This document shows, one piece after another, positions 12,183-42,133 of a stretch of DNA of 64,000 nt (positions are counted from its first letter, which is position 1; each line of letters opens with the position of its first letter). The position numbers and the translations under genes are program-made. Origin of the DNA: Eledone cirrhosa (lineage: Eukaryota); contig OZ024757.1 of NCBI GenBank assembly GCA_964016885.1, positions 13,640,001-13,704,000 of the forward strand, given 5' to 3'. The notes beneath the pieces are model-generated. The model worked only from the letters and a program-made list of their open reading frames with translations. It did not search any database and had not been told where the DNA came from.

Positions 12183-12263
12183 GTTATTCCGGGTTGAGTC
12201 GGAGGTAACCACAGTAAGTAAGGTACTCAATACATTGCAGAGTATAAAAGTTTTAATATAGAT

Positions 12264-12312
12264 GAGATTCTACAGGACTAGAAATGTTTCATTCTTTAGA
12301 AATCATCAGGAA

Positions 12313-12316
<4 letters not shown>
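12264..12316 (-). ncRNA. type I hammerhead ribozyme (family C element, 12181-12316)
   Basis: Minus strand: gagattc-CTGATGA-tttctaaagaat-GAAA-ca...tg-TA-gaatctc; 7-bp stem I, GUA site. Confidence 0.75.
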
Positions 12317-12344
<28 letters not shown>

Positions 12345-12353
12345 CACATGCAA

Positions 12354-12444
<91 letters not shown>

Positions 12445-12589
12445 CACATATATATATATAAATACACACACACATACAAATATATATACACACACACATA
12501 CAAATATATAGACACACACACATACAAATAAATGATGATATATATATACACACACATATATATATATATATAAATACATAAATATACAC

Positions 12590-12990
12590 GGGTGCGTATG
12601 ATTGTGTATAGAAGATTATATTAAGAGGAATTCCAACTTTGTCTGATTTACTCGTTTTATTTACAATTCTTTAAAATTTATAATGGTATTATAATGAAAT
12701 AGTATGATAGAATATTAAATTCTAAGTGTTAATTGAATAAGTACTTTCATGCTTTCGCAATCTTCAGGTTCATATGTGGTGACAGTCAAGTTTGCAATTT
12801 TCAGTTGAAAATTGCAAACTTGACTGTCACCACACATTATGAACCTGAAGATTGCGAAAGCATGAAAGTACTTGTTCAATTAACACTTAGAATTTAATAT
12901 TCTATCATACTATTTCATTATAATACCATTATAAATTTTAAAGAATTGTAAATAAAACGAGTAAATCAGACAAAGTTGGAATTCCTCTTA
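12590..12990. mobile_element. fold-back element with about 185-bp arms in (TA)n, carrying a hammerhead in each arm
   Basis: Arms 12622-12803 and 12806-12990 are near-perfect reverse complements; centre aattttca-gt-tgaaaatt; extra tail on the left arm. Confidence 0.9.
12840..12878 (+). ncRNA. minimal type I hammerhead ribozyme
   Basis: tgaac-CTGAAGA-ttgc-GAAA-gcat-gaaa-gtac-TT-gttca; perfect 5-bp stem I, stem II reduced to a loop; mirror copy at 12734-12772 (-). Confidence 0.8.
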
Positions 12991-13028
<38 letters not shown>

Positions 13029-13203
13029 AGTATATATATATATATACACGTACAAGTATATATATATATACACATGCAAGTATATATATATATATATATA
13101 TACACATATATATATATAAATACACACACACATACAAATATATAGACACACACACATACAAATATATATATATATAAACACATATACAAATACACACACA
13201 CAC

Positions 13204-13242
<39 letters not shown>

Positions 13243-13357
13243 CAAATATATACACACATATATATAAATACATACACACACATACAAATATATAGACACA
13301 CTCATACAAATACACACACATATGTATACACACAGACACATACATATATATATATAT

Positions 13358-13610
13358 GAGATCGTGTAGGTGTCACGACAAAAAAACACAGTCCACGCTG
13401 TAATGTGGCCGTGTAGGCAACACGGTAAAAACCTCCCAGACCCACACTGTAAATGTGGTTGGTGTTAGGAAGGGCATCCAACTGTAGAAAACCTGCCAGA
13501 CAGTCCTATGCGAGCAAGACAATCACTCTTGCCTCAAGTGGGACTACCCCCCGTCCAAACCCATGCAAGCATGGAACACGGACGTTAAACGTTGATGATG
13601 ATGATGATGA
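13358..13610 (+). mobile_element. RTE LINE 3' UTR fragment inserted in a TA run
   Basis: Matches 30940-31183; ends in (GAT)n. Confidence 0.85.
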
Positions 13611-14700
13611 TATATACACACACACACACAGACATATTGATTGGTTCTGTTTAATGTGTGTAAAAATGTTTGTTATTCCACATGGTCATCTGACATTCCA
13701 CAGTGAGATGGTAGGAACAGAATGTAGAGAGGGGGTGGTGGTTATGGTAGGGTTCGTGGTGGTGGTGGTGGTGAGGGTGTTATGGTAGGGTTCATGGTGG
13801 TTGTGGTGAGGGTGTTATGGTAGGGTTCATGGTGGTGGTGAGGGCGTTATGGTAGGATAGTGGTGGTGGTGAGGGGGTTATGGTAGAGTTCATGGTGGTG
13901 AGGGGGCTATGGTAGAGTTCATGGTGGTGGTGGTGGTGGGGTTCCTGGTGCTGGTGGTGAGGGGGGGTACGGTAGGGTGATGATGATGGTGGTGATGGTG
14001 GTGGTGAAGGTGATTATGGTGGGGTAGTGATGGTGGAGGGGATTATGGTAGGGTGGTAGTGGTGAAGGGGAATATGGTAGGGTGGTGATGGTGGTGGTGG
14101 GGGCGAGGAAGAGTGGGGTCAGAGGTCAGTTGACAAAAACCAAATCTTAAGACCCAAGCAGGAAGGTCTCCATCACTACACTACACTCCCAACCTCACAG
14201 CTCCACCACCACCACCACTACTACCACCACCCCCACCACTACAACCTCCTCCACCACCACCTCCACCACCTCTTCCCAGCTGTTGAAAACAAACATCACA
14301 TGTCACTATATTGCTGATTTAATGTACTCACACACACAATCACCCACACATATACACACATAACTCAGGTGTTTCCCTCCAATCCTTCCTGTTTATACAA
14401 ACCCTGTTACTTCTCCCTATACTTCTTCCCCTCTCTGTATGTCAACCCCTGATGGTCAGTCACACACACATACAGAAAGAGGTCATAGCAGCAGTAGCTT
14501 AAGAGTACAAAAGGCCCCTCCCAAAGGCAATTAACCCTCTGAGTGTATCCCTTTTTCTTTTTCAAAATTGGGATTATCACTCCTAAAGGTGTCTTTCCAG
14601 AGATTCAGGCCTCTCAGCACACAGAAGTTAGCCAGAAAATACCTTCTCTATTTAAGGCCTTTATCCCCTCCAGTGGCCTTGTCATATTTGAGCTCTTTAA

Positions 14701-14918
14701 CTCTTTGGCATCTACATAACTCTCTATGTATTGTATTTTCAAGGTAAAGGCTTTATCTTACATAATTATCTCACATAATATCAAATCTATGAGATTTTGA
14801 TGATATTTATTTTGAGAACAATACCTTAAAAGTGGTATCAGTGGCCGGTTACAGCCAGTTTGAACAGAAAGAGGTGGGAGAATTCTGGCCAGATATAGCT
14901 GGTTTAAATGCTAAAGGG
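14701..14918. mobile_element. piggyBac-type MITE (family P)
   Basis: ttaa|ctctttggcatcta ... taaatgctaaaggg|ttaa; TTAA target duplication with CCC/GGG-type TIR. Confidence 0.8.
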
Positions 14919-15027
14919 TTAAGTTACCATATTTCTAATGAAAAACACTGCTCATTACAGTCTTTAGAAACAATGAGCAATTTTAAATTCATGAAATAAA
15001 TAAAAGCTTTGGTTTTGGTTCACTTAA

Positions 15028-15435
15028 CCCTTTAGCATTTGCATTACACTATATTTACTATTATATTTTTGCAGTAAAGGCTTTACCGACCATAATTATC
15101 TTACATAATATTGAATCTATGAGATTTTGATATTATTTATATTGAGACCTATACCTTAACATCAGTATGAGCAGCCAGTAACAACTGGTTTGAGCAGGAA
15201 GAGGTGAGAGAATTCTGGCCTGATATGGCCAGTTTAACCCTTTAGCATTTAAACCAGCCACAATTCTCTCACCTCTTTCTGTTCAAATCGGCCATACCTA
15301 ACTGCTTATACTGATGTTAAGGTATTGTTCTCAAAATAAATAATATCAACATCTCATAGATTTGATATTATGTGAGATGAAGCCTTTTCTGTGAAAATAC
15401 AATAGTATTTCGAGAGTAATGTGAATGCTAAAGGG
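15028..15435. mobile_element. two family P MITEs head-to-head (inverted dimer)
   Basis: ttaa|ccctttagcattt at 15028 and 15238; ends gctaaaggg|ttaa at 15435. Confidence 0.85.
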
Positions 15436-16040
15436 TTAATATAGAAATGGCTTATACAGGGCAAGAACTTTAATTCGAAAGAAATCATCAGGAAAGCTTT
15501 CCTGATGATTTCTTCCATGCACATAGTACATTCTGTAGAGTTTGTTGTCAAGAAGACCATCTAGCTGTAGAAACCATGCTAAAACTGGAACATATGCCAG
15601 CAAGACTTGTCAACCCCCACACATCAGCCAATACTGTCTTCTTCTGTGACAACCTATCTAACTAAAGTCAGCATGAGAAGAGGCAGGAGTCTTTCATAGC
15701 TCCACAACATTTGCATCTGACATGCCAACATGTTTCTCTCTGTCTCTGTCGTCGCCCCCCCCCCTCTCTGTCTAGATTTATCTCTCACCTCTTATCTCTG
15801 CTCTACAAACTTTCCTATCAGAGTATCTTACATAGACATGAAGAAATATTGGACAGAGGACCTATTTATCATATGTACGTGTTTCTCTCGCTATATATAT
15901 ATACACACACACATATATATAATATATATATATATACACACGACCGTGACTTCTGGCGTCACGCAGTAATACAGGGTACCCGACCTCCCATGGGTACATG
16001 CTGAAGCATATAAACAATATGACCCCCCCCCCCCTCCACC

Positions 16041-16295
16041 GCAAGGTGGCCGTGGAGGTGCCACGGCAAAAAAGCACCCAGCCCACACTGTAAAGTGGAC
16101 GTGTAGGCGCCACGAAAAAGCACCCAGCACTCACTGTAAATGAGGTTGGTGTTAGGAAGGGCATCCAGCTGTAGAAATCAAGCCAGATCAGTTCCTGTAT
16201 GAGCAAGGCATGGTCAGCCGACCAGACACTGCCCACAACAGGACAACCCGTCTAACCCATGCTAGCGTGGAAGAACGGACGTAAAACGGTGATGA

Positions 16296-16298
<3 letters not shown>
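16041..16298 (+). mobile_element. SINE S2 3' part with RTE-type tail
   Basis: ggttggtgttaggaagggcatccagctgtagaaa ... ggacgtaaaacg(gat)n, shared with the RTE 3' UTR. Confidence 0.7.
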
Positions 16299-16332
<34 letters not shown>

Positions 16333-16378
16333 TATATATGTATGTATATATGTATATATATAAATATATATATATATA

Positions 16379-16412
<34 letters not shown>

Positions 16413-16736
16413 GTGTGAGTGTGTGAGCACGCATATGTGCATGTGCATATGTGAGCATGTGTTTTATGCATGTATGTGAACCTGTGTGCAGTGTGATTAT
16501 TAGTTTGAATGTCTGCACATGTGAAAATGTAAAAATCTGCCTTAGTTTGCAATATATAAGAGGAAGGGAGGGAGATAGTGAGGGTGTGGGGGTGGGTGTG
16601 AAAGTTTTGTCAAACAAGAAGAGAGGACAGGCACACAGATACTGAAGGACAGGCAGATAGATGCATGATGGCTTAAAACAGCGGTCACCAACCTTTCGGT
16701 CCTCACAGACCACTATATTCATAATTTCATTAAATT

Positions 16737-17260
16737 ATGGTGGATTGGCAGTATCGGTGGAGGGTCGGACGCCATGCTTTGCAGCATAGTTACGTCCCTT
16801 TACGATCTGAGTTCAAATCCCGCCGAGGTTGACTTTGCCTTTCATCCTTACGGGGTCGATAAAATAAAGTACCAGTAATGCACTGGGTAATTGCGGCCTT
16901 GTGCCTAAAGTAGAAACAATTAAATTATGTGGACCACTAATATGAATTTTTTTTAAAAGATAAATACATTTGTAAAATAATAGTTTCTACTTTTGGCACA
17001 AGGCCAGCAATTACCCCAGTGCATTACTGGTACTTTATTTTATCGACCCCGTAAGGATAAAAGGCAAAGTTAACCTCATTTGTAAAATAATTGTTTCTAC
17101 TTTTGGCACAAGGCCAGCAATTACCCAGTGCATTACTGGTACTTTATTTTATCAACCTCGTAAGGATGAAAGGCAAAGTTAACCTCGGCGGGATTTGAAC
17201 TCAGAATGGCAAGGGCCGTAACTCTATGCGTCAAAGCATGGCGTCCGACCCTCTACCAAT
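16737..17260. mobile_element. SINE S1 cluster: one + copy, then two - copies
   Basis: + copy 16737-16922; - copies at about 16980-17078 and 17088-17260. Confidence 0.85.
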
Positions 17261-17489
17261 TTGTAAAATAATGATCAGAGAACTTCCATTTTATTAACCC
17301 TTTAGCATTTACATTATTACTCTTCTTAATTTCATTACCACCATTAATGACTTTTCTGGAAAAATATCACAAGATCCACATGACAGATGCAATGTGTCCG
17401 AACACTGAAGAGCTGAACTCCCACCGTCATCACCTCCATCTCTCTAGCCCTCCCCGTCTCTCTGTATTGTATGCAAATGGGATCCCATG

Positions 17490-17690
17490 TTCTGGCTGCC
17501 CCACAGCCCCAGCGGACAGAGTGGAGGAGGCGTTTCCACGGAGGATGGTAAGGGAGATGCGCTGGAAGAGCCATTCCATCTCGCGAGGTACCCACCTGCG
17601 GCTGGCCAGCTCAGCGCCTATGGCGGTAGGTAGGGAGGTAGCCCTAGGGCCAAGGACACCAGACGTCTCCACAGCCAAGGGCACGACCAT
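17490..17690 (-). pseudogene. CRE-clade non-LTR retrotransposon C-terminal restriction-like endonuclease fragment
   Basis: VPLAVETSGVLGP...LFQRISLTILRGNASS matches the P.A.ET.G ... QR.S...RGNA signature; sits between two halves of a family P MITE (17298-17800). Confidence 0.8.
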
Positions 17691-18319
17691 ATTTACTATT
17701 GTATTTTCATATGATATCGAATCTATGAGATTTTGATAACAATACTTTAACATCAGTATGAGTGACCAGCTATGGCCAGTTTGAACAGAAGGAGGTGAAC
17801 CTTACAGTCATTGCCACCATGATCACTATCATCAACACCAACACCACCACCACCACCATCATCATCATGAACTTCACAATCAGCCTTACCATGATCACCA
17901 CCAACGCCACCACCACCACCACCACTAACACCATCACCATTACCATCTTCAAGAACTCTAGTCACTGACACCATCATCAACACCACCACCACCACCACTA
18001 CAACTATTACCACTCCTAATACCCCATGGGTTACCATTACCAAAATAAGCCTTACTACAACTGCCACCAGGGTGGTTCTATCCAATGCATCATTACTCAT
18101 ACAATGGAATTGGCTCAGCTCACATTTCTAAGACTTGGGAACTAAATACTACAAAATCTGCGTATATAAATATATACATATGTATGTATGTATGTATGTG
18201 CAAATGTATGCACATATATATATATGTGTGTGTGTATGTAATACATGCACATGCAGACACATATATAAACACACACACATTATATATATATATATATAAA
18301 TACACATACATACATATAT

Positions 18320-18369
<50 letters not shown>

Positions 18370-18728
18370 TGGCTGCCAACTCGTTTTCGAGTACGGCCAC
18401 TACTTTATATCCATGTAGGAGAACCCCTACCGATGCGCTGAACGAGTGTGACTTTTTAGTCCAGCCAGCGACTTGAAAACTACTCTGGTACAAGCACTAC
18501 ACTTGTGATAATTATTGACACAAAGTGCTGGGCCCATGGTACCATGTGAGGACAAGTGCAGAGAGATCTCCAGATATAAAGCAATGCCTGTGCCGTGAAG
18601 CTTTTATAGTGAGCAAAGGCACATACATACATACATATATACATACACATACATACATATATACATACAAACCTGTCCAAACCATGCTAGTGTGGAAGAT
18701 GGACATTAAACAATGATGATGATGATGA

Positions 18729-18762
<34 letters not shown>

Positions 18763-19007
18763 GCCTTGATACGGATATATATGGGTGTGTATATAATATA
18801 TATATATATAGCTTATGCATAATATACAGAATGAGGGGAGAACTCAATACAAAGTTAGCAGTGCATGTATACAGAATACATATATATTTCAAAGAATTTG
18901 AAGGGTTTTGGGGGTAGGTGAAATTTGATGCATTGTGCTAATATATGTCAACAGATTTGAAAGCCACAACAATGTTTAAACAAAAACAGATATATATGTA
19001 TGCATCT

Positions 19008-19040
<33 letters not shown>

Positions 19041-19044
19041 CATA

Positions 19045-19620
19045 TTTATTAAAATAACAGATTAACGTTTAAGCAAAGAATCGCTGCTTTCACCCTTAAA
19101 GGGGTTTTCTGAAACTAAAAAAGTCAATCTGTGAACGCAGAAGTAAATATTTCGAAAAACGTTGCAACCGAAGGAAGACGATACTTTGGTTCGTGGAAAC
19201 GTTCCCTGGCAAAGAACGGAAAAAAACGAATATAATACGTCATTATTTGGAGCAGTGAAAATAATTACAAACCACGTTTATGGTATAAATGAAGTCGTAA
19301 ACTGATATTCTATTAGGTGGTTCGTAGAGACGTTCTCTGGCAAAGAACGTTTTTTTTCCATTCTTTGCCACAAACCAAAGTATCCTCTTCCTGTCTTCCT
19401 TCGGTTGCAACGATTTTTGAAATATTTACTTCTGCATTCACAGATTGATTTTTTTAGTTTCAGAAGATCCCATTAAGGGTGAAAGCAGCGATTCTTTGCT
19501 TAAACTTTAATCTGTTATTTTAATAAATATTTGCTCTACGGTTCTTATATATTTGATATATATTTATCCTTGTCGAGCCCTCTTTGGATTTTAGTCTTCA
19601 AATTTATTATTATTACTATA
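19045..19620. mobile_element. fold-back hammerhead element (family D) in (TA)n
   Basis: Arms at about 19045-19230 and 19350-19530 are inverted; tail 19530-19620; partial copy at 58150-58260. Confidence 0.85.
19456..19506 (+). ncRNA. type I hammerhead, A4 core variant
   Basis: agttt-CAGAAGA-tccc-attaa-gggt-GAAA-gca-gcgattctt-tgc-TT-aaact; all three stems pair. Confidence 0.7.
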
Positions 19621-19648
19621 TATATACATATTTATATATGTATGTATG

Positions 19649-19693
<45 letters not shown>

Positions 19694-19704
19694 ATATAAT
19701 GTGT

Positions 19705-20324: not shown

Positions 20325-20823
20325 TGTTTTGCAACGGGTCACTTTGTGGCTCAATGAAAAGTTAATAGATTAAATAATCAGAGCTATATATCATAAAACA
20401 TGCCTATAGAATCACCAGATAAAATATATATCATTTCCTCTCCCAATTAGCATAATTAACCATATAAAAAATCGAATAGATCAAGCTATAAGAATAAGGC
20501 TTCTATGAAGAAATCTCCAACAAATAACCGAAACCAGCCCTTCGCGCCGGCTGTGACAGAATATTTATCGAATATTTCAACAGTGTAATCGCCCAGATAT
20601 ACAGTCAATTAAACAGAATTAGGTGTAAAATAAACTAGGAGAAAAGAGAATACATTTATTTACCTCAACCATGGGCTGGTTTCGGTTATTTGTTGGAGAT
20701 TTCTTCATAGAAGCCTCATTCTTATAGCTTGATCTATTCGATTTTTTATATGGTTAATTATGCTAATTGGGAGAGGAAATGGTATATATTTTATCTGGTG
20801 ATTCTATAGACATGTTTTATGAT
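20325..20823. mobile_element. fold-back element in (TA)n with degenerate hammerhead-like core
   Basis: Arms 20390-20540 and 20673-20823 are inverted; ttttat-CTGGTGA-ttctata-GACA-tgtttt; tail on the left. Confidence 0.75.
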
Positions 20824-20904: not shown

Positions 20905-21200
20905 AACCACAAACCCTCCGTCTCAATTGTACTTTTGAAAAGCAGAACTGCGAAACTGGTAAAGGAACCAAATAAATATATATTTTTATAAAAAAAGACT
21001 CCAGTTGCATTTTCGATTTCATCTTTTTTCCTTATATAAATATGTATATGTATATAAGGAAAAAAGATGAAATCGAAAATGCAACTGGAGTCTTTTTGTT
21101 TTTAAATTTTGGTTTTAAGTTTTACCGGTTGCGCATTTCTAATGCTTTTCAAAAATAATTTTGAGATAGAGCGCCCGTGATGTTTGCTCTAATGATGACA
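20905..21200. mobile_element. fold-back element with diverged outer arms
   Basis: Perfect inner arms 20992-21038 and 21052-21097; weaker similarity continues outward. Confidence 0.7.
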
Positions 21201-22329
21201 CAAATATATATATATATATATATATTGTTATACTTTGGGAGGGTCATGTTGCCAATAAGAAACACACGCACCAATTGCTTTCACTTCAATTTATTATATA
21301 TTTATAAATTTATAAATTTACAAATCTACAAATCTATAAATTTCTGGTTGGTTGGTTGGTTCCACAACCAGATAGTTGTTTATATATAGTCATAGTCCTT
21401 TCGTCACACACTCTGTGACCTCTTCAGTGACTGGGGATTCCTTTCTTTGTTTCTGTGCCTTTCCTTTCTTCTGTCCTACGCCATTTTGTTTCTGTGTGTG
21501 TGTTGTGTGCTCAGTTTGCGCATGCGCCACATCCGGGTGTCTGTGTGTGTTTGTGTTCATTTATCTATTTGTTTATTTATTTATTTATTTACATGTTATT
21601 GGTTGGTTGTTTGTTCTATGTGTGTGTGTGTTTTCGTTTTGTCCTTAATTGTAAGTTGTGATGTTGCTGTTCCACTCACATTTTCTATTTAATTTTGGTT
21701 GTAATTCTTTTATGTTTATTGCCTCTGTAATTGTATCTGTAATTTGTCTAAATTTTAGACAAATTACAGAGGCAATAAACATAAAAGAATTACAACCAAA
21801 ATTAAATAGAAAATATGAGTGGAACAGCAACATCACAACTTACAATTAAGGACAAAACGAAAACACACACACACATAGAACAAACAACCAACCAATAACA
21901 TGTAAATAAATAAATAATCAAATAGATAAATGAACACAAACACACACAGACACCCGGATGTGGCGCATGCGCAAACTGAGCACACAACACACACACAGAA
22001 ACAAAATGGCGTAGGACAGAAGAAAGGAAAGGCACAGAAACAAAGAAAGGAATCCCCAGTCACTGAAGAGGTCACAGAGTGTGTGACGAAAGGACTATGA
22101 CTATATATAAACAACTATCTGGTTGTGGAACCAACCAACCAACCAGAAATTTATAGATTTGTAGATTTGTAAATTTATAAATTTATAAATATATAATAAA
22201 TTGAAGTGAAAGCAATTGGTGCGTGTGTTTCTTATTGGCAACATGACCCTCCCAAAGTATAACAATATCGGTTTCAACATACGATTTCAGATAAAGAATC
22301 TTGCTAAACAAATTCAGAAACGAAATAAA

Positions 22330-22390
<61 letters not shown>

Positions 22391-22518: not shown

Positions 22519-22644
22519 CATACATATATACATATATATATATATTTATGTGTCATCATTAGAGCAAACATCACGGGCGCTCTATCTCAAAATTATTTTT
22601 GAAAAGCATTAGAAATGCGCAACCGGTAAAACTTAAAACCAAAA
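21107..22644. repeat. 1.5-kb near-perfect palindrome centred at 21753 (family A fold-back plus duplicated flank)
   Basis: Centre gtctaaa-t-tttagac; 21225-21752 mirrors 21754-22265; 21107-21203 mirrors 22548-22644. Confidence 0.92.
22058..22102 (+). ncRNA. type I hammerhead ribozyme of family A
   Basis: agtca-CTGAAGA-g-gtcaca-gagtg-tgtgac-GAAA-ggac-TA-tgact; mirror at 21388-21432 (-); further copies at 25474-25516 (+), 36753-36795 (-) and 58434-58476 (+). Confidence 0.8.
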
Positions 22645-25134: not shown

Positions 25135-25287
25135 TTATATATATAATTGTTTCTACTTTTGGCACAAGGCTAGCAATTACCCAGTACATTACTGGTACTT
25201 TACTGTGTAATTGCTGGCCTTGTGCCAAAAGTAGAAACAACTATATATATATAAAGGGTGTCCCTCAAAAATGTATACATACATTAT

Positions 25288-25344
<57 letters not shown>

Positions 25345-25345
<1 letters not shown>

Positions 25346-25672
25346 TTCGTTTCTGAATTTGTTTAGCAAGATTCTTTATCTGAAAACGTGTGTTGAAACC
25401 AACACACACAAAAAACAAGATGGCGTAGGACAGAACAAAGGAGAGGCACAAAAAACAAAGAAAAGAATCCGCAGTCACTGAAGAGGTCACATAATGTGTA
25501 ACGAAAGAACTTTGACAATATATAAACAACCATCTGGTTGTGGAACCAACCAACCAACCAACCGGAAATTTATAAATTCCTAAATTTATAAATTTATTAT
25601 AATAAATTGAAGTGAAAGCAACTGGTGCGTGTGTTTTTTATTGGCAACATGACCCTCCCAAAGTATAACAAT
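25345..25672 (+). mobile_element. family A hammerhead element with inverted tail segment
   Basis: Tail 25346-25400 is inverted relative to body 25401-25672; intact hammerhead at 25474-25516. Confidence 0.8.
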
Positions 25673-26003
25673 ATATATAATCATTCATCATCATTTAGGG
25701 CCATTCCTCCCTCCCTTCCAACCAAGTGTTGGCCTGGATCTTCACAGCGAGATGTCAGTACTCATATGGAGCTACTGACCTCACAGATGCAGGAGGTTGT
25801 TTTCTCAAGAAAGGACTCAATACGTGATATAGAGTCAAATGTATTGTTTATTATTATAGTATTATTTTTGCTCTAGTTGGTGGTAACTTCAAGATTTTGC
25901 TGAGGGTGGCTTATCATGCATGCATGCATATAGCCAAGCCTGAGTCTGTTTATGTGGACACACAATTATATAATTCAAATGTGACACGTGCGCAAACACA
26001 CGC

Positions 26004-30061: not shown

Positions 30062-30066
<5 letters not shown>

Positions 30067-31183
30067 AAGTATGGGTGCATAAAAGATGTAGTGGGATCAC
30101 AGGTAAGCTAACTAAGAACATAGATTTTACATGTGGCCGGTGCTCTGGTGCAATAAGTAGCAGCAAGTGCCCACAAAATACTAGCTCTTTCAATTGCGCA
30201 GAGGGTTCTATAGAAATAGTGGACAGCTTCCGTTACCTGGGCGATAAAATCAGCAGTGGGGGAGGGTGCTCTGAAAGTACTGTAGCTAGAGTCAGAACTG
30301 GTTGGAAAAAGTTCAGAGAGCTTATACCACTATTAGCTGCTAAAGGGTTCTCCCTAAAAATGAAAGGCAGGTTGTACGATGCCTGCATACGAACAGCAAT
30401 GCTGCATGGCAGTGAGACCTGGGCATTGTGTGCAGAGGATATACGCAGACTAGAGAGGAACGAAGCTTGCATGCTCCGCTGGATGTGTAACAGTAATATA
30501 CGTGAACGGCAAAGCATAAACGAACTAAGGAAAAAATTAGAGATAAGAGGGATCAGATGTTGTTTACTCGAGAGAAGGCTACGTTGGTATGGACACGTGA
30601 TGCGCATGAAAGTCGATAGCTGTATAACAAAGTGCAGGGCAATAAAGATAGACGGTAGTCACGGAATAGGCAGACCTAGAAAAACCTGGGACGAGCTGAT
30701 AAACTCCGACATCACACACTTACACCTCTCCAAGACAATGTCACTGGACCGAGACCTTTGGCGGTACTCAGTAACAGAGAAGACCCGCCTTACCTAAATA
30801 TATAGTAAAACCTACTCCAGCCAGTAGGCATCTCTAACAAAATACACCCCGTCCCACCACCACCACCCCCACCTCATCCACACCACCCCGTTCTATGTAA
30901 AGTTATGTTGGTGCCGCGCCATCGAGGCCGAAACAAATGAGATCGTGTAGGTGTCACGACAAAAAAACACACAGTCCACGCTGTAATGTGGCCGTGTAGG
31001 CAACACGGTAAAAACCTCCCAGACCCACACTGTAAATGTGGTTGGTGTTAGGAAGGGCATCCAACTGTAGAAAACCTGCCAGACAGTTCTATACGAACAA
31101 GACAACCAATCTTGCCTCAAGTGGGAAAATTCCCGTCCAAACCCATGCAAGCGTGGAAGATGGATGTTAAACGATGATGATGA
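30062..31183 (+). mobile_element. 5'-truncated RTE-clade LINE, copy 2, within (TA)n
   Basis: Closely similar to 4304-5772; TA runs on both sides. Confidence 0.92.
30075..30797 (+). pseudogene. C-terminal part of the RTE ORF (open to its natural stop)
   Basis: FRYLG, LHGSETW, RLRWYGHV, GRPRKTW, DRDLWR. Confidence 0.9.
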
Positions 31184-31227: not shown

Positions 31228-31235
<8 letters not shown>

Positions 31236-31545
31236 AGAACAAAAGATGGTTAAAAGAGTTCCATGTATTTTATTATGCGCATTTCAAAAACAAATATCAT
31301 CATGCAATAATATTTGTGTTTTCATCAGATAAAACAGGAAGACATGATATGAAGGTTAAAAAACACTTGTGGATAGTTCAGTTTTAAATCAACATTTGAA
31401 ATGCGCATAATAAAATACATGGAACTCTTTTAACCATCTTTTGTTCTTATATATTATGTATACTCCAGTCCTACAAACTGTAGAGTGCTTCTTATCCGAT
31501 ATCTGCATTGCTTTATTGTACTACAATAAAACTCACCTCCTACAT
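31228..31545. mobile_element. fold-back hammerhead element in (TA)n
   Basis: Arms 31228-31288 and 31395-31456; tail with tagagtgctt. Confidence 0.85.
31268..31334 (-). ncRNA. type I hammerhead ribozyme
   Basis: Minus strand: ttttat-CTGATGA-aaac-acaaatatt...gatatttgt-tttt-GAAA-tgcgca-TA-ataaaa; palindromic stem III ATGCGCAT. Confidence 0.82.
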
Positions 31546-31557
31546 ATATATATATAC

Positions 31558-31649
31558 GGGGTCGATAAAATAAAGTACCAGTAATGAACTGGGTAATTGC
31601 TGGCCTTGTGCCAAAAGTAGAAACAATTATATTATATATTATATTATTT

Positions 31650-31685
<36 letters not shown>

Positions 31686-31974
31686 AAATAATATAATATA
31701 TAATATAATTGTTTCTACTTTTGGCACAAGGCCAGCAATTACCCAGTTCATTATATATAATATAAAATAATATAATATATAATATAATTGTTTCTACTTT
31801 TGGCACAAGGCCAGCAATTACCCAGTTCATTACTGGTACTTTATTTTATCGACCCCCTAAGGATGAAAGGCAAAGTTAACCTCGACGGGATTTGAACTCA
31901 GACCATAAAGGGTCGTAACTATGCTGGAAAGCATGGCGTCCGACCCTCCACTGATACTGCCAATTCACCGCCCT
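31558..31974. mobile_element. SINE S1 (full - copy 31785-31974) with inverted 3' fragments around a TA run
   Basis: + tail 31558-31630, - tail 31705-31750, then the full - copy. Confidence 0.85.
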
Positions 31975-32264
31975 ATAATATAATAGATGCAAATTTATAT
32001 GTAACAAAGTGATAGTTGTTGGTCAGTACTGATCACATCTTCTAAAGGATATCTCTGACTAAATTATCTAAATTTTCTTTATTTTTGTGAAGTTGTTTTG
32101 AGGGATATTTGACTTTTATTTCTAGCATATGAAATAACCACCTAGTGGCTCCCTCTAGTTTGGTATGGTTGAACTGTTTCTTTTGCTCCAATTGGTAGAT
32201 TTTCCTTTCATATTTCAACACCCTCCTCCTCCTCCCCCTCCTGTTCTCCTTTTCTCTCTCTCTC

Positions 32265-32920: not shown

Positions 32921-33591
32921 TTAATGGAGTGGGGTTATACAGCATGGTATATGTGTGTATGTGACTGTGGGGTTCTCTATGAGTGTGCTTTGGGAAGGTA
33001 AGAGAGGGGCGGGAGACAGGGCTTATTTACATTTGAATGCACCTGTGTGCTTGTGTGTGTGTGTGTGTCAGTGTGTGTGTGTATGTTTGTGTGTCAGTGT
33101 GTGGGTGTGCTTGTGTGTCAGTATGTTTGTGTGTGTGTGTGTGTGTGTATGTCAGTGTGTGGGTGTGCTTGTGTGTATCAGTATGTTTGTGTATGGGTGT
33201 GCTTGTGTGTGTCAGTATGTTTGTGTGTGCGTGTGTGTGACAGTGTGTGTATGTGTCAGTATGTTTGTGTGTGCGTGTGTGTGACAGTGTGTGTATGTGT
33301 CAGTATGTTTGTGTGTGTGTGTGTGTTTGTGTGTGCATGTGTCAGTGTCGTGAGTCTAGTTATACCTGCACACGTGTGTTGGCTCCTGTTTTGTATTCTC
33401 ATCTGTGTGTTCATGTAAACCCCTAGGCCCTCACACACACAGGTGTTGGCTTCTACTCTTTATATGTATACCTGTGCTTGCATGTGTGTGTGTGTACAGG
33501 TATGAATGTGTGTGAGACAATCAAGAATTAATGACTGTACATTCACAATCACTCCCATGTGCATGTCTAAAAACGCTAAAGTCTGTCTTAA

Positions 33592-33812
33592 CCCTTTAAT
33601 GTTCAAAGCGGCCAAAACCGGCCAGAATTCTCTCACCTCTTTCTGTTGAAACTGGCTGAAACTGGTCACTCATACTGATGTTAAGGTATTTTTCTCAAAA
33701 TAAATACTTTCAAAATCTCATAGATTCGATATTATGTGAGATAATTATGTGAGATAAAGCCTTTACCATGAAAATATAATAGTAAATATAGAGTAATGTG
33801 AATGTTAAAGGG
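33592..33812. mobile_element. family P piggyBac-type MITE
   Basis: ttaa|ccctttaatgttca ... gaatgttaaaggg|ttaa. Confidence 0.85.
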
Positions 33813-33824
33813 TTAAGCCAGAAG

Positions 33825-34070: not shown

Positions 34071-34197
34071 ACACAACACTCACACACACACATATATATA
34101 TAGTTGTTGTATGGTTGCAATTAAATGCGTCCGTGGGCGGTATGCCGTTTGAGCACTCGATGTTCGCGCAGAGCAGAGAATATTATTATAGATAATA

Positions 34198-34388
34198 GGG
34201 CGGTGGTTTGGCAGTATCGGTAGAGGGTCGGGTGCCATGCTTTGAAGCACAGAGTTACGTCCCTTTATGATCTGAGTTCAAATCCCACTGAGGTTAACTT
34301 TGCCTTTCATCCCTACGGGGTCGATAAAATAAAGTACCAGTAATGCACTGGGTAATTGCTGGCCTTGTGCCTAACGTAGAAACAATTA
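34198..34388 (+). mobile_element. SINE S1 with target-site duplication
   Basis: Full copy; attattatagataa on both sides. Confidence 0.9.
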
Positions 34389-34433
34389 TTATAGATAACG
34401 AGGAATCAGAAATGCATCAAAACACAATTTATT

Positions 34434-34527: not shown

Positions 34528-34708
34528 TTGCGTTTACAAAGCATTCCATCGGATGCGATTGCAGAGTCGTGTTCATTCTGTAATAGATCCTGTCTTGAGC
34601 TGATCGTCGGAGAAACATATGTAATATGTTAATAAATTGTGTTTTGATGCATCACTGATTCCTCGTTATCTATAGGGCACATGGCTTAGTGGTTAGAGCA
34701 TTGGCCTT

Positions 34709-35040: not shown

Positions 35041-35059
35041 TATATATATATATATATAA

Positions 35060-35490
35060 ATATATTCAGAATAACAATAAATGATGAAGACATTCACATA
35101 ATCAAAATATATGTTTTATTATATATATTTCGGAGGTACTGTGCTGTTTTTTCAGTACGTCCTCGTCAGATAAAATACATGAATTGATGTATGACATACC
35201 TCAACTGTCTTGATGGTTCAATTAGTACTGCCAATACTGGAATTGAACCATCAAGACAGTTAAGGTATGTCATACATCAATTCATGTATTTTATCTGACG
35301 AGGACGTACTGAAAAAACAGCACAGTACCTCCGAAATATATATAATAAAACATATTTTGATTATGTGAATGTCTTCATTTATTAATATTTTGAATATTAA
35401 TAACTCCAGAAAATTTCTTTGTAGAGTGCTTTTAATCTATTGTAAAACTATATTAATTGAGTAATCAATGAACCATATTAATCTTTGGTT
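35060..35490. mobile_element. fold-back hammerhead element (family E) in (TA)n
   Basis: Arms about 35062-35223 and 35240-35397; tail to 35490; tail-only homologue at 41725-41860 (-). Confidence 0.88.
35289..35350 (+). ncRNA. type I hammerhead ribozyme
   Basis: ttttat-CTGACGA-ggacgtactg-loop-cagtacctcc-GAAA-tatata-TA-ataaaa; mirror at 35114-35175 (-). Confidence 0.82.
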
Positions 35491-36447
35491 ATATATATAG
35501 ATATATACACCTGTGCACAGCAACTCAAACACATACACACACACAATCTCACATCTCAGCATAATGTCAAATGTGATAAACGAAAAAGGAAAAGAGAAAT
35601 TAACAAATAAAAATGAAATAATATAACAAATTTTAAAACTAAATTAAACAATTATATATTTTTATGGGAGAGGAGGGATTGCAAATAAAGGTGTGGCAAG
35701 TATTTTATAAGCAGTCACCAACAGACTTAATATGTTGGTGTCACACCTCATCAAACACAGCTTGCACTGTACTGCACTGGATAGGCACAGCTGCTGCAGA
35801 TATACAACATACACACACACATGTGTGTGTGTATGTGTGTGTGTGCTGTAAATGTATGTACGGATATTGTGCATATACACACATATATATATATATACAC
35901 ATACATATATATATATATATACACAGACACACACATATATTTATATATACATACATATAGTTTGTGTTCATGTGTTGTTTTGTTATTTCATTTCTACACG
36001 CTGTTCGCTTGTCTGCTTTTAATTACCAGTTGATTTTTTTTTTTTTTCCCTTCGGTATTTTAGCAGTGTTATTAGTTAATGTGTTGAGCACTACTGAACA
36101 TCGATTCCAACTGTGACTAACCCCACTGAAAAGTTTCGTGAAATGGTCTTTTAAGACTATATAGTGCATTTGTAGTTTTCCCCAAATTGACGGTTAAGTA
36201 TTACTTCTTGATTTTATTTTGAATTAAGATTGTATTGCTTTTTCCCCAACTTACACAAAGTTTGATGATAAAGTTTTTATTCTTGATTTGTTTTGAATTA
36301 GGATAGTATTAATTTTTCCTCATCTTACATTAAATATTTTTTCATCTTGATGGTATAGTCACTTATATACCTGAATTATTGTTGGCATTATGCTTACATT
36401 AATTTTATTTTCATTTATATATACAGACACACACATATATATATATA

Positions 36448-36579
36448 GGAAAAGAGTCAGGACCTCGACGGCTGTCAGCAGTCGGCGTCCTGACTCTTTT
36501 CCTATTACCCACTCTACTACCCTAAGTATCGAGTACTCTGGTGCGTTATGGTCCACCTGGTATCTTACCACACCTTCTT

Positions 36580-36585
<6 letters not shown>
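36448..36585 (+). mobile_element. short fold-back plus tail element (family F)
   Basis: ggaaaagagtcaggac...gtcctgactcttttcc hairpin, then tattacccactctactaccctaagtatcgagtactctggtgcg; same tail at 40685-40765. Confidence 0.75.
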
Positions 36586-36642
<57 letters not shown>

Positions 36643-36649
<7 letters not shown>

Positions 36650-36901
36650 ATACTTTGGGAGGGTCATGTTGCCAATAAGAAACACACACACCAGTTATTA
36701 TAAGTTTCCGGTTGGTTGATTGGTTATATAACCGGATGGTTGTTCATATATTGTCAAAGTTCTTTCGTCACACATTCTGTGACCTCTTCAGTGACTGGGA
36801 ATTCTTTTCTTTATTTTCTATTTGACTCTCCCAAAGTATAACAATGTCGGTTTCAACACACATTTTCAGATAAGGAATCTTGCTAAACAAATTCAGAAAC
36901 G
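36643..36901. mobile_element. family A element, fold-back form
   Basis: Body 36643-36812 with hammerhead on the - strand, then an inverted end plus tail at 36824-36901. Confidence 0.8.
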
Positions 36902-37166
36902 ACATATATATATATATATGTTCAATTTGTCAAGCTATTTAAACGTTTGTTATTACTCTAAGGATCTACCCTTCTTGAATGCTTTCCTAACTCATTCCTA
37001 TTGTAGGTCGACTTTGCTTGCCCACAGCCAAAGCTTCAATTTTACTAAGCTTCCACTTGTATATATGCGAGCAAGACAACCACTCTTGCCTCAAGTGGGA
37101 AAACTCCCGTCCAAAACCATGCAAGCGTGGAACATGGATGTTAAACGATGATGATGATGATGATGA

Positions 37167-37240
<74 letters not shown>

Positions 37241-37542
37241 GGTATGGATATTCCAACAGGCACCAAGTACCTACACAAATATGCATGGTGTTTATAATAG
37301 TTGTGGTTCGATGGTATTAATTTGAAATACCAGTACCCTTTTATAATTATTCTCCTTATGTAGAGAACAAAACGTATCGCACTGCTATTTTTAGCGGCAT
37401 GATCAACAAGTTTATAATATCCCGCTTTTACTTATAGCCTATTTTTGTGTGTGTGTCACTTTAACGGCCTGACCCCATGCAACGGGCAGGACGCGATATT
37501 TTCTCTTACTATGAGACTTTATACCCTTATGGTACGGAAATA

Positions 37543-37622
37543 GCTGTCTGAAGATCTAATTCTTTCCATTGGAAATTCTCTGAATTTCCAATCTTTTGAT
37601 TAGTGAAACCGTCGGTAACGGC
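37543..37622 (+). ncRNA. type I hammerhead ribozyme
   Basis: gctgt-CTGAAGA-tctaat...attggaaattc-tct-gaatttccaat...attagt-GAAA-ccg-t-cgg-TA-acggc; GUA site; within TA-flanked unit 37235-37700. Confidence 0.8.
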
Positions 37623-37695
37623 AATAGAACAGGTGAATATTTAAATCGTATTTTAATTTATTTAAAAGATTGTTTGATGATTACTTGTTCCGCTC

Positions 37696-37766
<71 letters not shown>

Positions 37767-37843
37767 ATATCCGTACACACATATACAACCACAACACACA
37801 GACATGCATAACCCTCACCCACATATATACATATATGCATAAT

Positions 37844-37877
<34 letters not shown>

Positions 37878-37892
37878 TTGCACAATATACAT

Positions 37893-37925
<33 letters not shown>

Positions 37926-38966
37926 GTTTACTCAGCTGTAGAAATGAGATGATAGGGACTGCAAAGTGGTCGTGGAGGTGCCACGGCAAAAAAGCACCCA
38001 GCACTCACTGTAAATGAGGTTGGTGTTAGGAAGGGCATCCAGCTGTAGAAATCAAGCCAGAATCAGTTCCCGTCCCACCCTTGCAAGCAGGGAAAAAGTG
38101 GACGTAAAAATGAAATGAAAAATGATGAAAAATGATATATATATATATGTACAACACACATGTAAACATATAGAGACAACACTCACACACACAAATACCA
38201 TCACACTGTTGCAGATTGTGACAGTAACAATAACAACAACATTAACAACCACAACAACAGTAGCAATAACAACCAGTGCGAGTAATAACAACAGGCAGTC
38301 ACAACAACAACAACAGTAGTAATAACAAGCACAGTCACAATAAACACAGTAACAATAACAACCACAACAACAAGACAGTCACAATAAACACAATAACAAC
38401 CACAACAGCCACAACAACACTAGCAATAACAACAACAGACACAATAACAGTTGCCACAACAACAACAGTAACAACAACAGCCAGAACAATAACAGTAACA
38501 ATGACAACATACGGGTAACAGCTGAAGGTGTTAAACTGTATGGGGGGGGGAGTAGAGTAAGAGAGATAGGGGGAGAGAGAGAGAGGAAGGGAGATGGAGA
38601 GATAATTATTTGTTGAAAATAAAAGCTACAGTAAGATATAAATAAAAGCACCTGTCCTTTGTTTACTGGGGTGGTGGTTAGTGGGGAAGGGTGTAGTTAG
38701 AGGGGGCGGGGGGTAATAGTTGGGTGACAGTTGGTGGGAGGTGGTAGTTGGGTGACAGTTGGGAGAGATGGTAGGGGTGGTAGCTAGAGGTGACAGTATG
38801 GAAAGTCCATTGAGGTTTGGGAGTCTGTATGGGTGATAATAGGGAAAGTCCATTAAAGTAATAGTTTGGGACAGTCTGTAGGGGGTGGTTTCTGATTTAA
38901 GCACAAGGCCAACAACTTTTTTTTTTTTTATCATTTTTGGTGGGGGGGGGGGGGGGGGGGGAGTAA

Positions 38967-39180
38967 CCCTTTAGCATTTAAACCGGCCACATCTGGCCAG
39001 AATTCTCTCACCTCTTTCTGTTCAAACCGGCTGTGACTGGCCACTCATACTGATGTTAAGGTATTGTTCTCAAAATAAATAACGTCAAAATCTCATAGAT
39101 TCGATATTATGTGACATAAAGCCTTTACCACAAAAATACAATAGTATATATAGAGTAATGTAAATGCTAAATACTAAAGG
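38967..39180. mobile_element. family P MITE
   Basis: ccctttagcatttaaaccggcc ... gtaaatgctaa. Confidence 0.85.
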
Positions 39181-39328
39181 AGTAAATCGGACCCCATTGT
39201 ATTACTGGTGCTTTATTTTATCGATCCAGTAAGGCAAAGCTAACACATATTAATGTGAACATATTACACACACACATTCATGTACATAAAACCTTCCAAA
39301 CTATTTATCTAGACACACCAGATAATGT

Positions 39329-39387
<59 letters not shown>

Positions 39388-39389
<2 letters not shown>

Positions 39390-39784
39390 AAAGTTCTATT
39401 TAAATTGTTGGGATACAACAAGCATATATTTTTATAACTGATATAAAGCACTCAACAAATAATTGGAGTAAAAATACAATATTAACAAATGGAAACTATA
39501 TTTATAAAACCATATTTATTTCATTATACATATTTCAAGGACACCAAGTTAAATTTTGGTGTGCTTTCATCAGATAAAATATAATATAGAGCAGTTTTAT
39601 AAATAAAAGGAGCTTCCAACAGTAATGGTTGCATTCTTTAAGGGTATGTCAATATTTATTTATAAAACTGCTCCATATTATATTTTATCTGATGAAAGTA
39701 CACCATAATTTAACTTGGTGTCCTTGAAATATGTATAATGAAATAAATATGGTTTTATAAATATAGTTTCCATTTGTTAATATC

Positions 39785-39785
<1 letters not shown>
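39388..39785. mobile_element. fold-back hammerhead element in (TA)n
   Basis: Arms 39479-39607 and 39655-39783; tail 39388-39478. Confidence 0.88.
39683..39743 (+). ncRNA. type I hammerhead ribozyme
   Basis: ttttat-CTGATGA-aagtacacca-loop-tggtgtcctt-GAAA-tatgta-TA-atgaaa; mirror at 39519-39579 (-). Confidence 0.82.
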
Positions 39786-39828
<43 letters not shown>

Positions 39829-40059
39829 TAGAATGATCGAGAATCGGAATATCAGCCCACGAAATCACGATAAACAATATCCGACATGTGTGGCAGAGGG
39901 CTCAATAATTTGGATAAACCAGAGCTATAACTATCGTTAAAGTACCAACACACAGAGATCGTGCCTAAAATCACCCGTGCAGCCGAAAAAGAACGACCAG
40001 GAAGATTCGGGTCACTCAAATAAAATATCAATAAATTAATAAATTAAATTAATGTAAAA

Positions 40060-40118
<59 letters not shown>

Positions 40119-40572
40119 TACAGAACATGAATAAAAGGCTGGAACATCACTACAAACCAAGACCATCTCATACCACCATCACCATACCACCACCACTACC
40201 AGCACCACCTTATTACTATCACACATACATACACCACTACCATCACCACCACCATCACACATCACCACCACTACCACCACCTCCACCACCACCAACACCA
40301 CTATCAACATGCAGTAAGTGCATTAGTAAATATTTATAGCAGGAGTAATCTATCAGGTGCAGTAATTCAGGACCAAAATAGAAGATAGCAATATCTTTAC
40401 TATATATACAGGGTGTTCCCAGAAAATGTATACACACTTCAACAGCATTCTAATCAAAATGTGTATACAACTTTTTAGGACACCCTGTATATATATACAC
40501 ACACACACATACATAACTGCTTACGTTATTATCTATCTATCTATATATATCATTATATATATATATATATAT

Positions 40573-40765
40573 AGGAAAAAATATGACCCCGACGGCAGAG
40601 CTCAAGCCGTTTCGACAGCTATTTCTGGACTCCAGAAATAGCCGTCGAAACGGCTGAGCTCTGCCGTCGGGGTCATATTTTTCCTATTACCCACTCTACT
40701 ACCCTAAGTATTGAGTACTCTGGTGCGTTATGATCCATCTGGTTCCTTACCACATTTCCTTCATT
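40573..40765 (+). mobile_element. family F fold-back retaining the 3' half of a hammerhead
   Basis: Arms 40573-40629 and 40631-40685; GAAA-cggc-tgagctct-gccg-TC; the CUGANGA half is absent. Confidence 0.75.
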
Positions 40766-40879
40766 ATATATATATAAGAATAATCTTAACTATAATAAAG
40801 AAAGGAATGCGGGACTGCATCCAGAATATATTTTTTTTATCCCGTTTGTAAAATAAGTTGGATTACTTTGAATAAATAA

Positions 40880-41065
40880 TTGTTTCTACTTTAGGCACAA
40901 GGCCAGCAATTACCCAGTGCATTACTGGTACTTTATTTTATCGACCCCGTAAGGATGAAAGGCAAAGTCAACCTCGGCGGGATTTGAACTCAGATCGTAA
41001 AGGGACGTAACTATGCTGGAAAGCATGGCGTCCGACCCTCCACCGATACTGCCAATCCACCGCCC
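40880..41065 (-). mobile_element. SINE S1 with 14-bp target-site duplication
   Basis: tttgaataaataat at 40867-40880 and 41066-41079. Confidence 0.92.
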
Positions 41066-41669
41066 TTTGAATAAATAATGAATGAATATTACATAATTTA
41101 TGTGCTAAATTTCGTGGCTGTTGATTAAATATATTTTATAGCTTATTTAAAGATTCACTTCTTTAAAATTTTCAAATGTCAACACTTCCGGTTAGCGGCC
41201 GTTATATTATAACACTTATAAAAATATCGCATATATTTCCGTCGCTAATTTTCTCCTAATGCAGTTTATATATAATATCGTCTTTTTTTAAATGTATCAT
41301 GGATTACTTTACTGATTACAGAAGACAGTGTAACATAGACTTCGTTCAACTTCTGTGTATATTGTCAATTACGATTTTATTTGATGTATCATATCTACAT
41401 GTGTATATATTTGTGTATAATATCAATATACACACTACACATGCAAGCAGAAAACCACCCAAGGGTGGTTTTTCTGCTAGTATTAGTAATAAACGAAAGA
41501 TATATATTTTATATCATCTCTATTTATTTTATTATATATATTTTTAAGATATAAAGGTTTATGTATAACATAAAGCAAAACATGTCCTCTTCAGACAAAA
41601 TACATAGATATATAATTGTTTCATGATATGCTGGTTGACAAACTAGCTGGACACATCAGTGACCACCAA

Positions 41670-41727
<58 letters not shown>

Positions 41728-41870
41728 CCAAAAGTTTAACAAGGTTCATATCAATGAATAAAGTTTTACAATAGATTAGAAGCACTCAACAAAGAAGTTT
41801 TCTGGAGTTATTAATATTACTTCAAAATATTAATAAATATAGACATTGATGTGATCAAATATATATATAT

Positions 41871-42133
41871 AAGTTTATCCCGGGTTCATTTGGAGTTAAC
41901 CACAGTAAGTAAGGTACTCAGTACATAGCAGAGTATATTTAATATAGAAATGGCTTCTACAGGACTACAACTGTTTCATTCGGGAGAAATCATCAGGAAT
42001 GAAACAGATTTTTCCCGAATGAAATAGTTCTAGTCCTGTAGAAGCCATTTCTATATTAAATATTTATACTCTGCTATGTACTGAATACCTTACTTACTGT
42101 GGTTACCCCGCGAATGAACTCGGGATAAACTTA
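41871..42133. mobile_element. family C fold-back hammerhead element
   Basis: Arms 41871-41990 and 42008-42133; hammerhead at 41955-41999 (-): ttc-CTGATGA-tttctcccgaat-GAAA-cag...ctg-TA-gaa. Confidence 0.85.

Follow-up and report, generated by a model that had tools for sequence, protein, structure and literature searches.

Why does one short string recur in the tails of seemingly different mobile elements? The question is raised by a stretch of 64,000 nucleotides (nt) from Eledone cirrhosa (assembly GCA_964016885.1, contig OZ024757.1, positions 13,640,001 to 13,704,000 of the forward strand), which we call the window. According to a preliminary description, the string GAGYVCY stands ahead of terminal TA runs in otherwise unrelated elements and was thought to be either a cis signal recognized by the mobilizing reverse transcriptase (RT)-endonuclease or part of a second small RNA structure. 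We found that GAGYVCY forms the 3' strand of a small hairpin with a bulge. Judging by protein motifs, most of the window tails that bear the hairpin are 3' stumps of Penelope-like elements of the Hydra clade. Full-length copies carry the hairpin twice, and copies end a few bases 5' of one hairpin or the other. It is probable that each of the twin hairpins is bound by the RT-endonuclease and places an internal reverse-transcription start 3-5 nt 5' of itself.

The hairpin behind the GAGYVCY string

All 14 GAGYVCY-type strings of the preliminary description are present at the positions and on the strands given for them, 23-71 nt ahead of a TA run, and, as described, neither family A nor the 37.5 kb element has the string. 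The hairpin consists, in order, of RCTC, an upper stem, a 2-nt U-H bulge in the 3' strand, GAGY and an unpaired RCY. Its outer strands pair: ACTC stands ahead of GAGT, and GCTC ahead of GAGC. The hairpin is complete at 12 of the 14 sites. At 58217 the string is in place, but the 5' strand is lost, and the site is a deletion copy of the 19533/19575 family. The site at 21169 is not a member of the group. It lies on the antisense strand of another type of element (locus L016 type), whose endonuclease has a CCHH motif; a hairpin is not predicted there (pair probability 0.01), and its twin at 22575 was absent from the earlier list. Nor are the tails all non-homologous, as had been claimed: 12221/41912, 36531/40713, 19575/58217 and 35424/41780 are family pairs.

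The position of GAGYVCY relative to TA runs gave a divided answer, with the bare 7-mer weakly enriched and the hairpin that it closes strongly non-random. Among the 44 matches in the window, 20 sit 20-100 nt before a TA run, against 9 equally far after one. In 400 kb outside the window, 61 matches precede and 41 follow a TA run (n = 262); for clean zones of the same DNA, the numbers are 39 and 21 (n = 434). Two 7-mer sites, 10351 and 19828, precede a TA run with no credible hairpin at either. The hairpin descriptor was derived from the window and then fixed before the outside tests. It found a hairpin at 31 of the 61 tail-zone matches in the 400 kb and at 9 of 201 elsewhere (Fisher p = 1e-15). 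In a second 400 kb, taken from four other contigs, the hairpin was found at 28 of 71 tail-zone matches and at 10 of 209 elsewhere (p = 1.3e-11). These p values overstate the case because members of one family are not independent observations: the 27 tail clusters into which the 87 tail-zone hairpins fall include about 4 false positives of the descriptor. A bulge of 2 nt was clearly enriched and bulges of 0, 1 or 4 nt were not, while 3 nt gave p values of 0.44 and 0.013. Over the 27 clusters, the first pair is A-T in 19, G-C in 6 and G-T in 2, and the first upper pair is T-A in 19 and C-G in 6. The guess of a second small RNA structure was right in that the motif belongs to a hairpin with covarying stems.

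Two other explanations of the string were rejected. A self-complementary dimer site (AGYRCT) would have a central C-A mismatch in GAGC-ACT, yet this is the commonest form in other organisms. The hairpin is also not stem III of the hammerhead ribozyme, since the complete ribozyme lies upstream. Among the best 150 of 227 Rfam matches to the window (E <= 1), there was no model for this hairpin and no hammerhead; almost all of them were microRNA models on microsatellites or fold-backs, and all were under their cut-offs.

Carrier elements and the twin hairpins

Walking upstream from the 35.4 kb family, we passed an AT-rich 3' untranslated region (UTR) and reached an open reading frame (ORF) that ends in a CxCX5C linker and a GIY-YIG endonuclease without CCHH. 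The linker reads C-N-C-x5-C in loci L112, L139, L173 and L455. At the ORF's C-terminal end, CxxC (C-N-L-C) and CxH (C-x-H) surround a conserved E and N, and there is no cysteine pair within GIY-YIG. The N-terminal part has DKT in nearly all copies, RWK in L275 and the variants RWR, RWI and RWC elsewhere. In L173, L188 and L172 the order is RT and endonuclease in one ORF, followed by the 3' UTR, the hammerhead and the ends. The CxCX5C linker, GIY-YIG without CCHH, C-terminal CxxC/CxH, DKT and an RWK-like motif are the marks of the Hydra clade (PMC8557442). The AlphaFold model of a homologue, P0001 (pLDDT 88), has telomerase RT as its best structural match (E = 2.5e-9).

The elements had been called unrelated, but most families trace to ORFs of this one clade. 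The link is direct for six families (35.4, 41.8, 39.4, 31.5, 36.5/40.7 and 34.15 kb), including the 34.15 kb family, whose relatives L445 and L446 carry the second hairpin (H2, see below) and a Hydra ORF. It is partial for the 19.6/58.2 kb family, in which an ATG and about 10 Hydra-like codons come after H2 in L444, and indirect for the 12.2/41.9 kb family; none was shown for the 20.35 and 39.9 kb families. In the whole genome, the endonuclease query returned 57,688 first-look candidates. Hammerhead cores were found by pattern at 35295, 39533/39689, 12287, 41974 and 31282. Cores of the form TTGA-N-AA, a U3-A8 variant described in PMC4209133, were noticed as well, by eye in L268 and L281 and at ends of the L001 and L019 types.

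A search for an autonomous partner with PF01541 returned CCHH-type elements, and the motif is absent from their 3' ends and ORF starts where these were read, with a hairpin at 0 of 4 CCHH-type ORF starts; the upstream walk described above supplied the partner. Family A follows a GIY-YIG endonuclease ORF of another type in L010, and the elements at 12.6-13.0, 20.9 and 21.1/22.6 kb follow CCHH-type ORFs. We take family A and the CCHH-type elements to be Poseidon-like and Neptune-like, respectively. Their different endonuclease types fit the absence of the motif from them.

The check for the motif in autonomous Penelope elements, suggested in the preliminary description, was positive for protein-coding Hydra-clade copies, in which it lies between the hammerhead and the ATG. 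By eye, the published Hydra-1_Ajap consensus starts with two hairpins about 55 nt apart. From this pair we predicted a second hairpin just beyond the end of the tail, and it was then found in full-length copies. Their order is hammerhead, first hairpin (H1), tail, H2 and ATG; H1 and H2 are spaced by 78-99 nt, and H2 lies about 30-55 nt before the ATG. Of 68 Hydra 5' junctions of this genome, 49 have at least one hairpin and 23 have two, compared with 1 on the opposite strand; truncated or decayed copies account for many of the junctions without one. The double-hairpin pattern has 3898 matches in the genome, and its reversed control has 638. Also by eye, there is one hairpin in the 3' tail of Hydra-2_Amil and of Hydra-2_Ajap, and there are deviant ones in Hydra-1_Crog. 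Coral and sea-cucumber elements are among the published consensuses that have the hairpin.

We also assessed whether the hairpin accompanies related proteins in other organisms, using 77 metagenome loci, the best of 296 confirmed. With the fixed descriptor, the upstream flanks (14.7 kb) yielded 40 hairpins and 5 on the other strand, and the ORFs (157.8 kb) yielded 13. Anchors searched without a demand for pairing placed the motif in 38 of the 44 loci having 170 nt upstream (at least two in 31 of them), and in 2 on the other strand. Most often the motif reads GCTC...TH-GAGC-ACT. Watson-Crick pairing occurs at the first upper pair in 62 of 66 hairpins (C-G 40, T-A 22; shuffled mean 34.5), at the second in 39 of 61 (shuffled 17.9) and at the third in 29 of 41 (shuffled 10.9), where the shuffles ignore relatedness. 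The 3' end lies 0-4 nt before a hairpin in about 9 of 26 comparable loci, and most of the others stop at the contig end. The motif, with compensatory changes, is retained across proteins about 35-55% identical, and the flanks share nothing. In viral contigs there were 85 pattern matches and no relative among them.

Copy ends and the proposed role of the hairpins

Inverted arms of the 35.4 kb family that extend into the hairpin region have the same stopping point, or nearly so, 3-5 nt before the hairpin. The short arm of the insertion at 35062-35489 ends at 35397, 5 nt before H1, and the short arm of the fold-back at 39386-39788 stops 4 nt before its H1. To map ends more widely, we used eight full junctions as references against the window and the 800 kb, and the latest end allowed by microhomology was counted. 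A TA run adjoins 76 of the 91 copies, and each of these 76 has its end within -3 to 12 nt of a hairpin, either H1 (modes 4-5) or H2 (mode 3). With 12 references and looser filters, 106 of 114 TA-joined ends lie a few bases 5' of H1 or H2. A TAT/ATA trinucleotide stands at the copy ends. Such sites are also spread along every reference, therefore microhomology alone does not pick the places of the ends.

An end before H2 leaves a long arm, with H1 and the tail, and an end before H1 leaves a short one. Head-to-head pairs joined a long and a short arm in 31 cases and two short arms in 2; there was no pair of long arms, 5 pairs were unclassified, and for 10 short ends no partner was found. We compared the arms in 82 long-short junction records; both unbiased and targeted loci contributed, and a few records are counted twice. 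In 33 records the short arm reached more than 10 nt further 5', in 12 the long arm did, and 37 were equal. Since the short arm often extends further upstream than the long arm, it is a separate complementary DNA (cDNA) and not a copy of the long arm. Snap-back synthesis of the second strand was rejected because in the 33 records the short arm holds sequence missing from the long arm.

The Poseidon element PAc of the green anole offers a precedent for such ends: two internal RT starts bound its tail, both strands of an AT-rich target are cut and extended, the protein is predicted to be a dimer, and an RNA-binding region lies near the ORF start (Frangieh et al. 2024, PMC11167929). By analogy, the Hydra-clade protein, perhaps a dimer as predicted for PAc, would cut a (TA)n target on both strands. 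Of the two free 3' ends, one would pair with an AU-rich spot before H2 and prime a long cDNA with the tail and H1; the other would pair before H1 and prime a short cDNA. If synthesis of both cDNAs ends early and their 3' ends are then joined, a head-to-head insertion with the tail on one side would result, and the tail would be the H1-to-H2 interval. Long-short pairing would follow from one RNA having one H1 and one H2. The earlier suggestion of a cis signal agrees with the fixed offset to copy ends and with the conservation of the hairpin, and we infer from these that the RT-endonuclease itself recognizes it.

The manner of recognition is a matter of speculation. The U-H bulge before a G-C and an A-U pair may form an arginine-binding pocket of the TAR/7SK kind. 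In the metagenome hairpins, the first bulge base is U in 64 of 66 and a purine precedes the bulge in 64 of 66; the G-C and A-U pairs after it were fixed by the search anchor. The R-W of the protein's RWK motif is near-invariant, which is a lead only. It is conceivable, although we think it doubtful, that two TAR-like hairpins about 90 nt apart load the halves of a dimeric RT-endonuclease, so that both ends of the (TA)n break are primed at once, each at a fixed place inside the RNA.

Several observations weigh against the proposed role of the hairpins. Two of six published Hydra consensus sequences, Hydra-1_Amil and Hydra-1_Obim, have no hairpin by eye. The search for H2 gave only tandem duplicates of H1 in the 12.2/41.9 kb family, and in the 20.35 kb family two junctions with another repeat, with no H2 or ORF link. 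Six of the eight misplaced ends in the 12-reference set fall in the 19.6 kb family, and insertions with two long arms exist in families outside the tally (41859-42144 and L175). The three central pairs of the lower stem are invariant, hence there is no covariation from them, and by RNAfold this stem has a probability of at least 0.7 at only 5 of 12 hairpins in the window. U-U is frequent at the second upper pair, chiefly in H2, which often has a single upper pair. Evidence for pairing on the RNA-sense strand is mixed: G-U outnumbers A-C by 18 to 3 in the junctions of this genome, but upper pairs of the metagenome loci include 8 G-U and 6 A-C, plus 5 A-C at the first pair. Finally, PAc belongs to another clade, and its starts lie inside the ORF, in an AC-rich stem loop (PMC11167929).

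The fixed offsets might also arise from hairpins that act in DNA. Copying would then start downstream, and the GIY-YIG endonuclease would trim or resolve the cDNA beside the hairpin, or H1 would stop the second strand. Craig et al. propose that the tail results from endonuclease-mediated resolution (PMC8557442), the D. virilis endonuclease required tail DNA (as told in PMC11167929), and both the strict long-short pairing and the indecisive G-U and A-C counts of the metagenome loci suit this explanation. However, the junctions of this genome have 18 G-U against 3 A-C, the 10 short ends stand without a partner, the snap-back version conflicts with the 33 records described above, and the ends of the PAc tail were mapped directly as RT starts (PMC11167929). 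We consider action in DNA improbable, although no other alternative has more weight for us. Less weight is given to hairpins as RNA 3'-end signals, with the transcript cut or terminated 3-5 nt before each and then copied by ordinary target priming. The same offsets are expected from such signals, and PAc RNA sequencing reads ended where its start sites are (PMC11167929). But a random choice of two RNAs would give many long-long and short-short pairs, in contrast to the 31 long-short pairs out of 33, and PAc initiates internally regardless of the RNA 3' end (PMC11167929).

It is unlikelier again that the hairpins serve translation control or hammerhead folding and that copy ends obey a separate nearby signal. 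The place of H2 before the start codon is fixed, the PAc hammerhead needs protein for cleavage (PMC11167929), and several Hydra hammerheads likewise have ACTC/GAGT as their stem III sequence. The hammerheads nevertheless have their own stem III, 60-110 nt upstream, and H1, which is distant from the ATG, matches H2 in sequence and in end offset. A functionless hairpin kept by shared ancestry or chance is very improbable. The slight enrichment of the bare 7-mer (about 1.5-2-fold) and the relatedness of the families speak for it; enrichment limited to the 2-nt bulge, and compensatory changes amid unshared flanks in elements with such divergent proteins, speak against it. Recognition of the twin hairpins by the RT-endonuclease remains the explanation we prefer.

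Further features of the window and comparison with known systems

The table lists the features of the window. Two families with H1 showed additional peculiarities. The 5' truncations of the 36.5/40.7 and 12.2/41.9 kb families are concentrated 60-72 nt upstream of H1; by eye, they lie upstream of the expected hammerhead cleavage site and not at it. In the 12.2/41.9 kb family, the unit of H1 plus tail is sometimes repeated head to tail (loci L438-L440, L457 and L271). Elsewhere in the genome there are tandem arrays with GCTC...GAGYRCT without the 2-nt bulge, with a unit of about 80 bp (L262-L266, G000:C1:10296214-10296620) or about 46 bp (L285).

Features of the window (positions are those of the whole stretch)
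Feature	Position	Strand	Remarks
H1 (ACTC, upper stem, TA bulge, GAGT, GCT)	35403-35430	+	H2 and Hydra ORF in loci L188/L189
Head-to-head insertion in (TA)n	35062-35489	+	short inverted arm; long arm with hammerhead 35295-35336, H1 and tail
H1, lineage of 35403	41781-41808	-	
H1 of fold-back 39386-39788	39447-39469	-	hammerhead core 104 nt upstream; H2 and ORF in L245
H1 of fold-back about 31230-31544	31462-31489	+	H2 and Hydra ORF in L251/L261
H1 of short fold-back about 36445-36584 (arm ends 36505)	36511-36537	+	H2 and Hydra ORF in L268
H1, family of 36511 (arm ends 40687)	40693-40719	+	
H1 (GCTC/GAGC, long AT-rich upper part) of fold-back 19042-19616 (arm ends 19530)	19533-19581	+	
3' hairpin strand only, deletion copy	58217-58223	+	
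H1, decayed copy	34152-34179	-	5' strand placed by likeness to L445; descriptor alone gives 34152-34174
H1 (3' flank ACC)	12222-12243	-	hammerhead core 66 nt upstream; Hydra ORF link indirect
H1, family of 12222	41913-41934	-	tail on both arms of insertion
H1 (GCTC/GAGC, 3' flank CCT)	39897-39925	-	one H2-like continuation, without ORF
H1 (GCTC/GAGC, deviant 3' flank CAC)	20346-20384	-	hammerhead upstream in L175 (by eye)
Candidate hairpin beyond the earlier list	25812-25835	-	second GAGT-ACT string at 25757-25763; single copy in searched DNA
Listed site outside the group, with twin	21169-21176; twin 22575-22582	+; twin -	antisense to end of CCHH-type element
Repeat of about 200 bp	8946-9330, 16740-17260, 31555-31985, 34184-34389, 40863-41068, 45745-46135		
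TAACCCTTTAGC-bounded repeat	14693-15439, 55350-55786, 33587-33817, 38964-39182		

Elements of the other types have ends of their own. Family A (21222-22333, 10614-10980, 25287-25674, 36642-36905 and 58377-58630) has the same pattern of long and short ends without the hairpin, with a short end near 22268 and a long end near 22333. By eye, the CCHH-type elements seem to have another signal, with YCGTGT shortly past the short end and the complementary ACACGR shortly past the long end. The two could close one long stem (tails of L061, L068, L019 and L001-L020; 12588-12620 in the window).

The remaining repeats are of various kinds. A 116 bp direct repeat (11003-11118 and 11619-11734) frames a 600-bp element with a CTGATGA word and, upstream of that word, a GAAA; this is not an obvious type I hammerhead. 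The abundant repeat (about 200 bp) forms fold-backs and goes into other elements, making short duplications. Another family, of about 210-230 bp, is bounded by a TAACCCTTTAGC-like word and often occurs as inverted pairs. An RT ORF of 573 aa (3171-4892), with a truncated second copy at 30062-30797, is LINE-like and unrelated to the hairpin; presumably it is RTE-like.

The way in which Penelope-like elements, telomerase's nearest kin among retroelements, select their RNA and start site is an open question, and the origin of their inverted repeats and tail is named as unsolved in PMC8557442. With a motif some 25 nt long, whose offset to both ends is measured and which is conserved across the clade, this question becomes testable with a few mutants. 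The hairpin is also a cheap marker of Hydra-clade ends in any genome. If the hairpins do load a dimer, they would give Penelope-like elements their first defined cis signal, the inverted-repeat-plus-tail signature would be fully accounted for, and a portable two-hairpin cassette could steer other RNAs into TA repeats.

The elements belong by sequence to a described clade, and the hairpin and its link to both ends appear to be new. We found no published description of the hairpin, of its duplication or of its tie to both ends in a search that left out Repbase, subscription journals, supplementary figures and bioRxiv supplements. The copies in E. cirrhosa resemble the Hydra clade as described by Craig et al. 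(2021, PMC8557442) in the hammerhead, the (TA)n target, the inverted truncated copy and the one-sided tail. They differ from that description in tails of about 80-100 nt, not 30-40, and in several 3' UTRs of 1.2-1.4 kb. Non-LTR retrozymes are likewise short hammerhead sequences from Penelope-like ends, but they form head-to-tail tandem arrays, whereas the copies in the window are truncated ends of coding elements, solo or head to head (PMC7229834; bioRxiv 10.64898/2026.07.22.740005).

The stem of HIV TAR reads GAGC/GCUC. In the arginine-sandwich bulges, the base triple is U23.A27-U38 in TAR and U40.A43-U66 in the 2-nt bulge of 7SK SL1 (Pham et al. 2018, PMC6189040). The Hydra-clade hairpin shares with them a bulged U after a Watson-Crick purine and before a G-C and then an A-U pair. 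It differs in that the loop is on the opposite side of the bulge and an unpaired RCY follows the stem. PAc resembles the Hydra-clade picture in its AT-rich target and in the two internal starts that bound the tail. In the available text on PAc (PMC11167929) no conserved recognition motif is defined, whereas the putative Hydra-clade signal is a repeated 5' UTR hairpin located 3' of each start.

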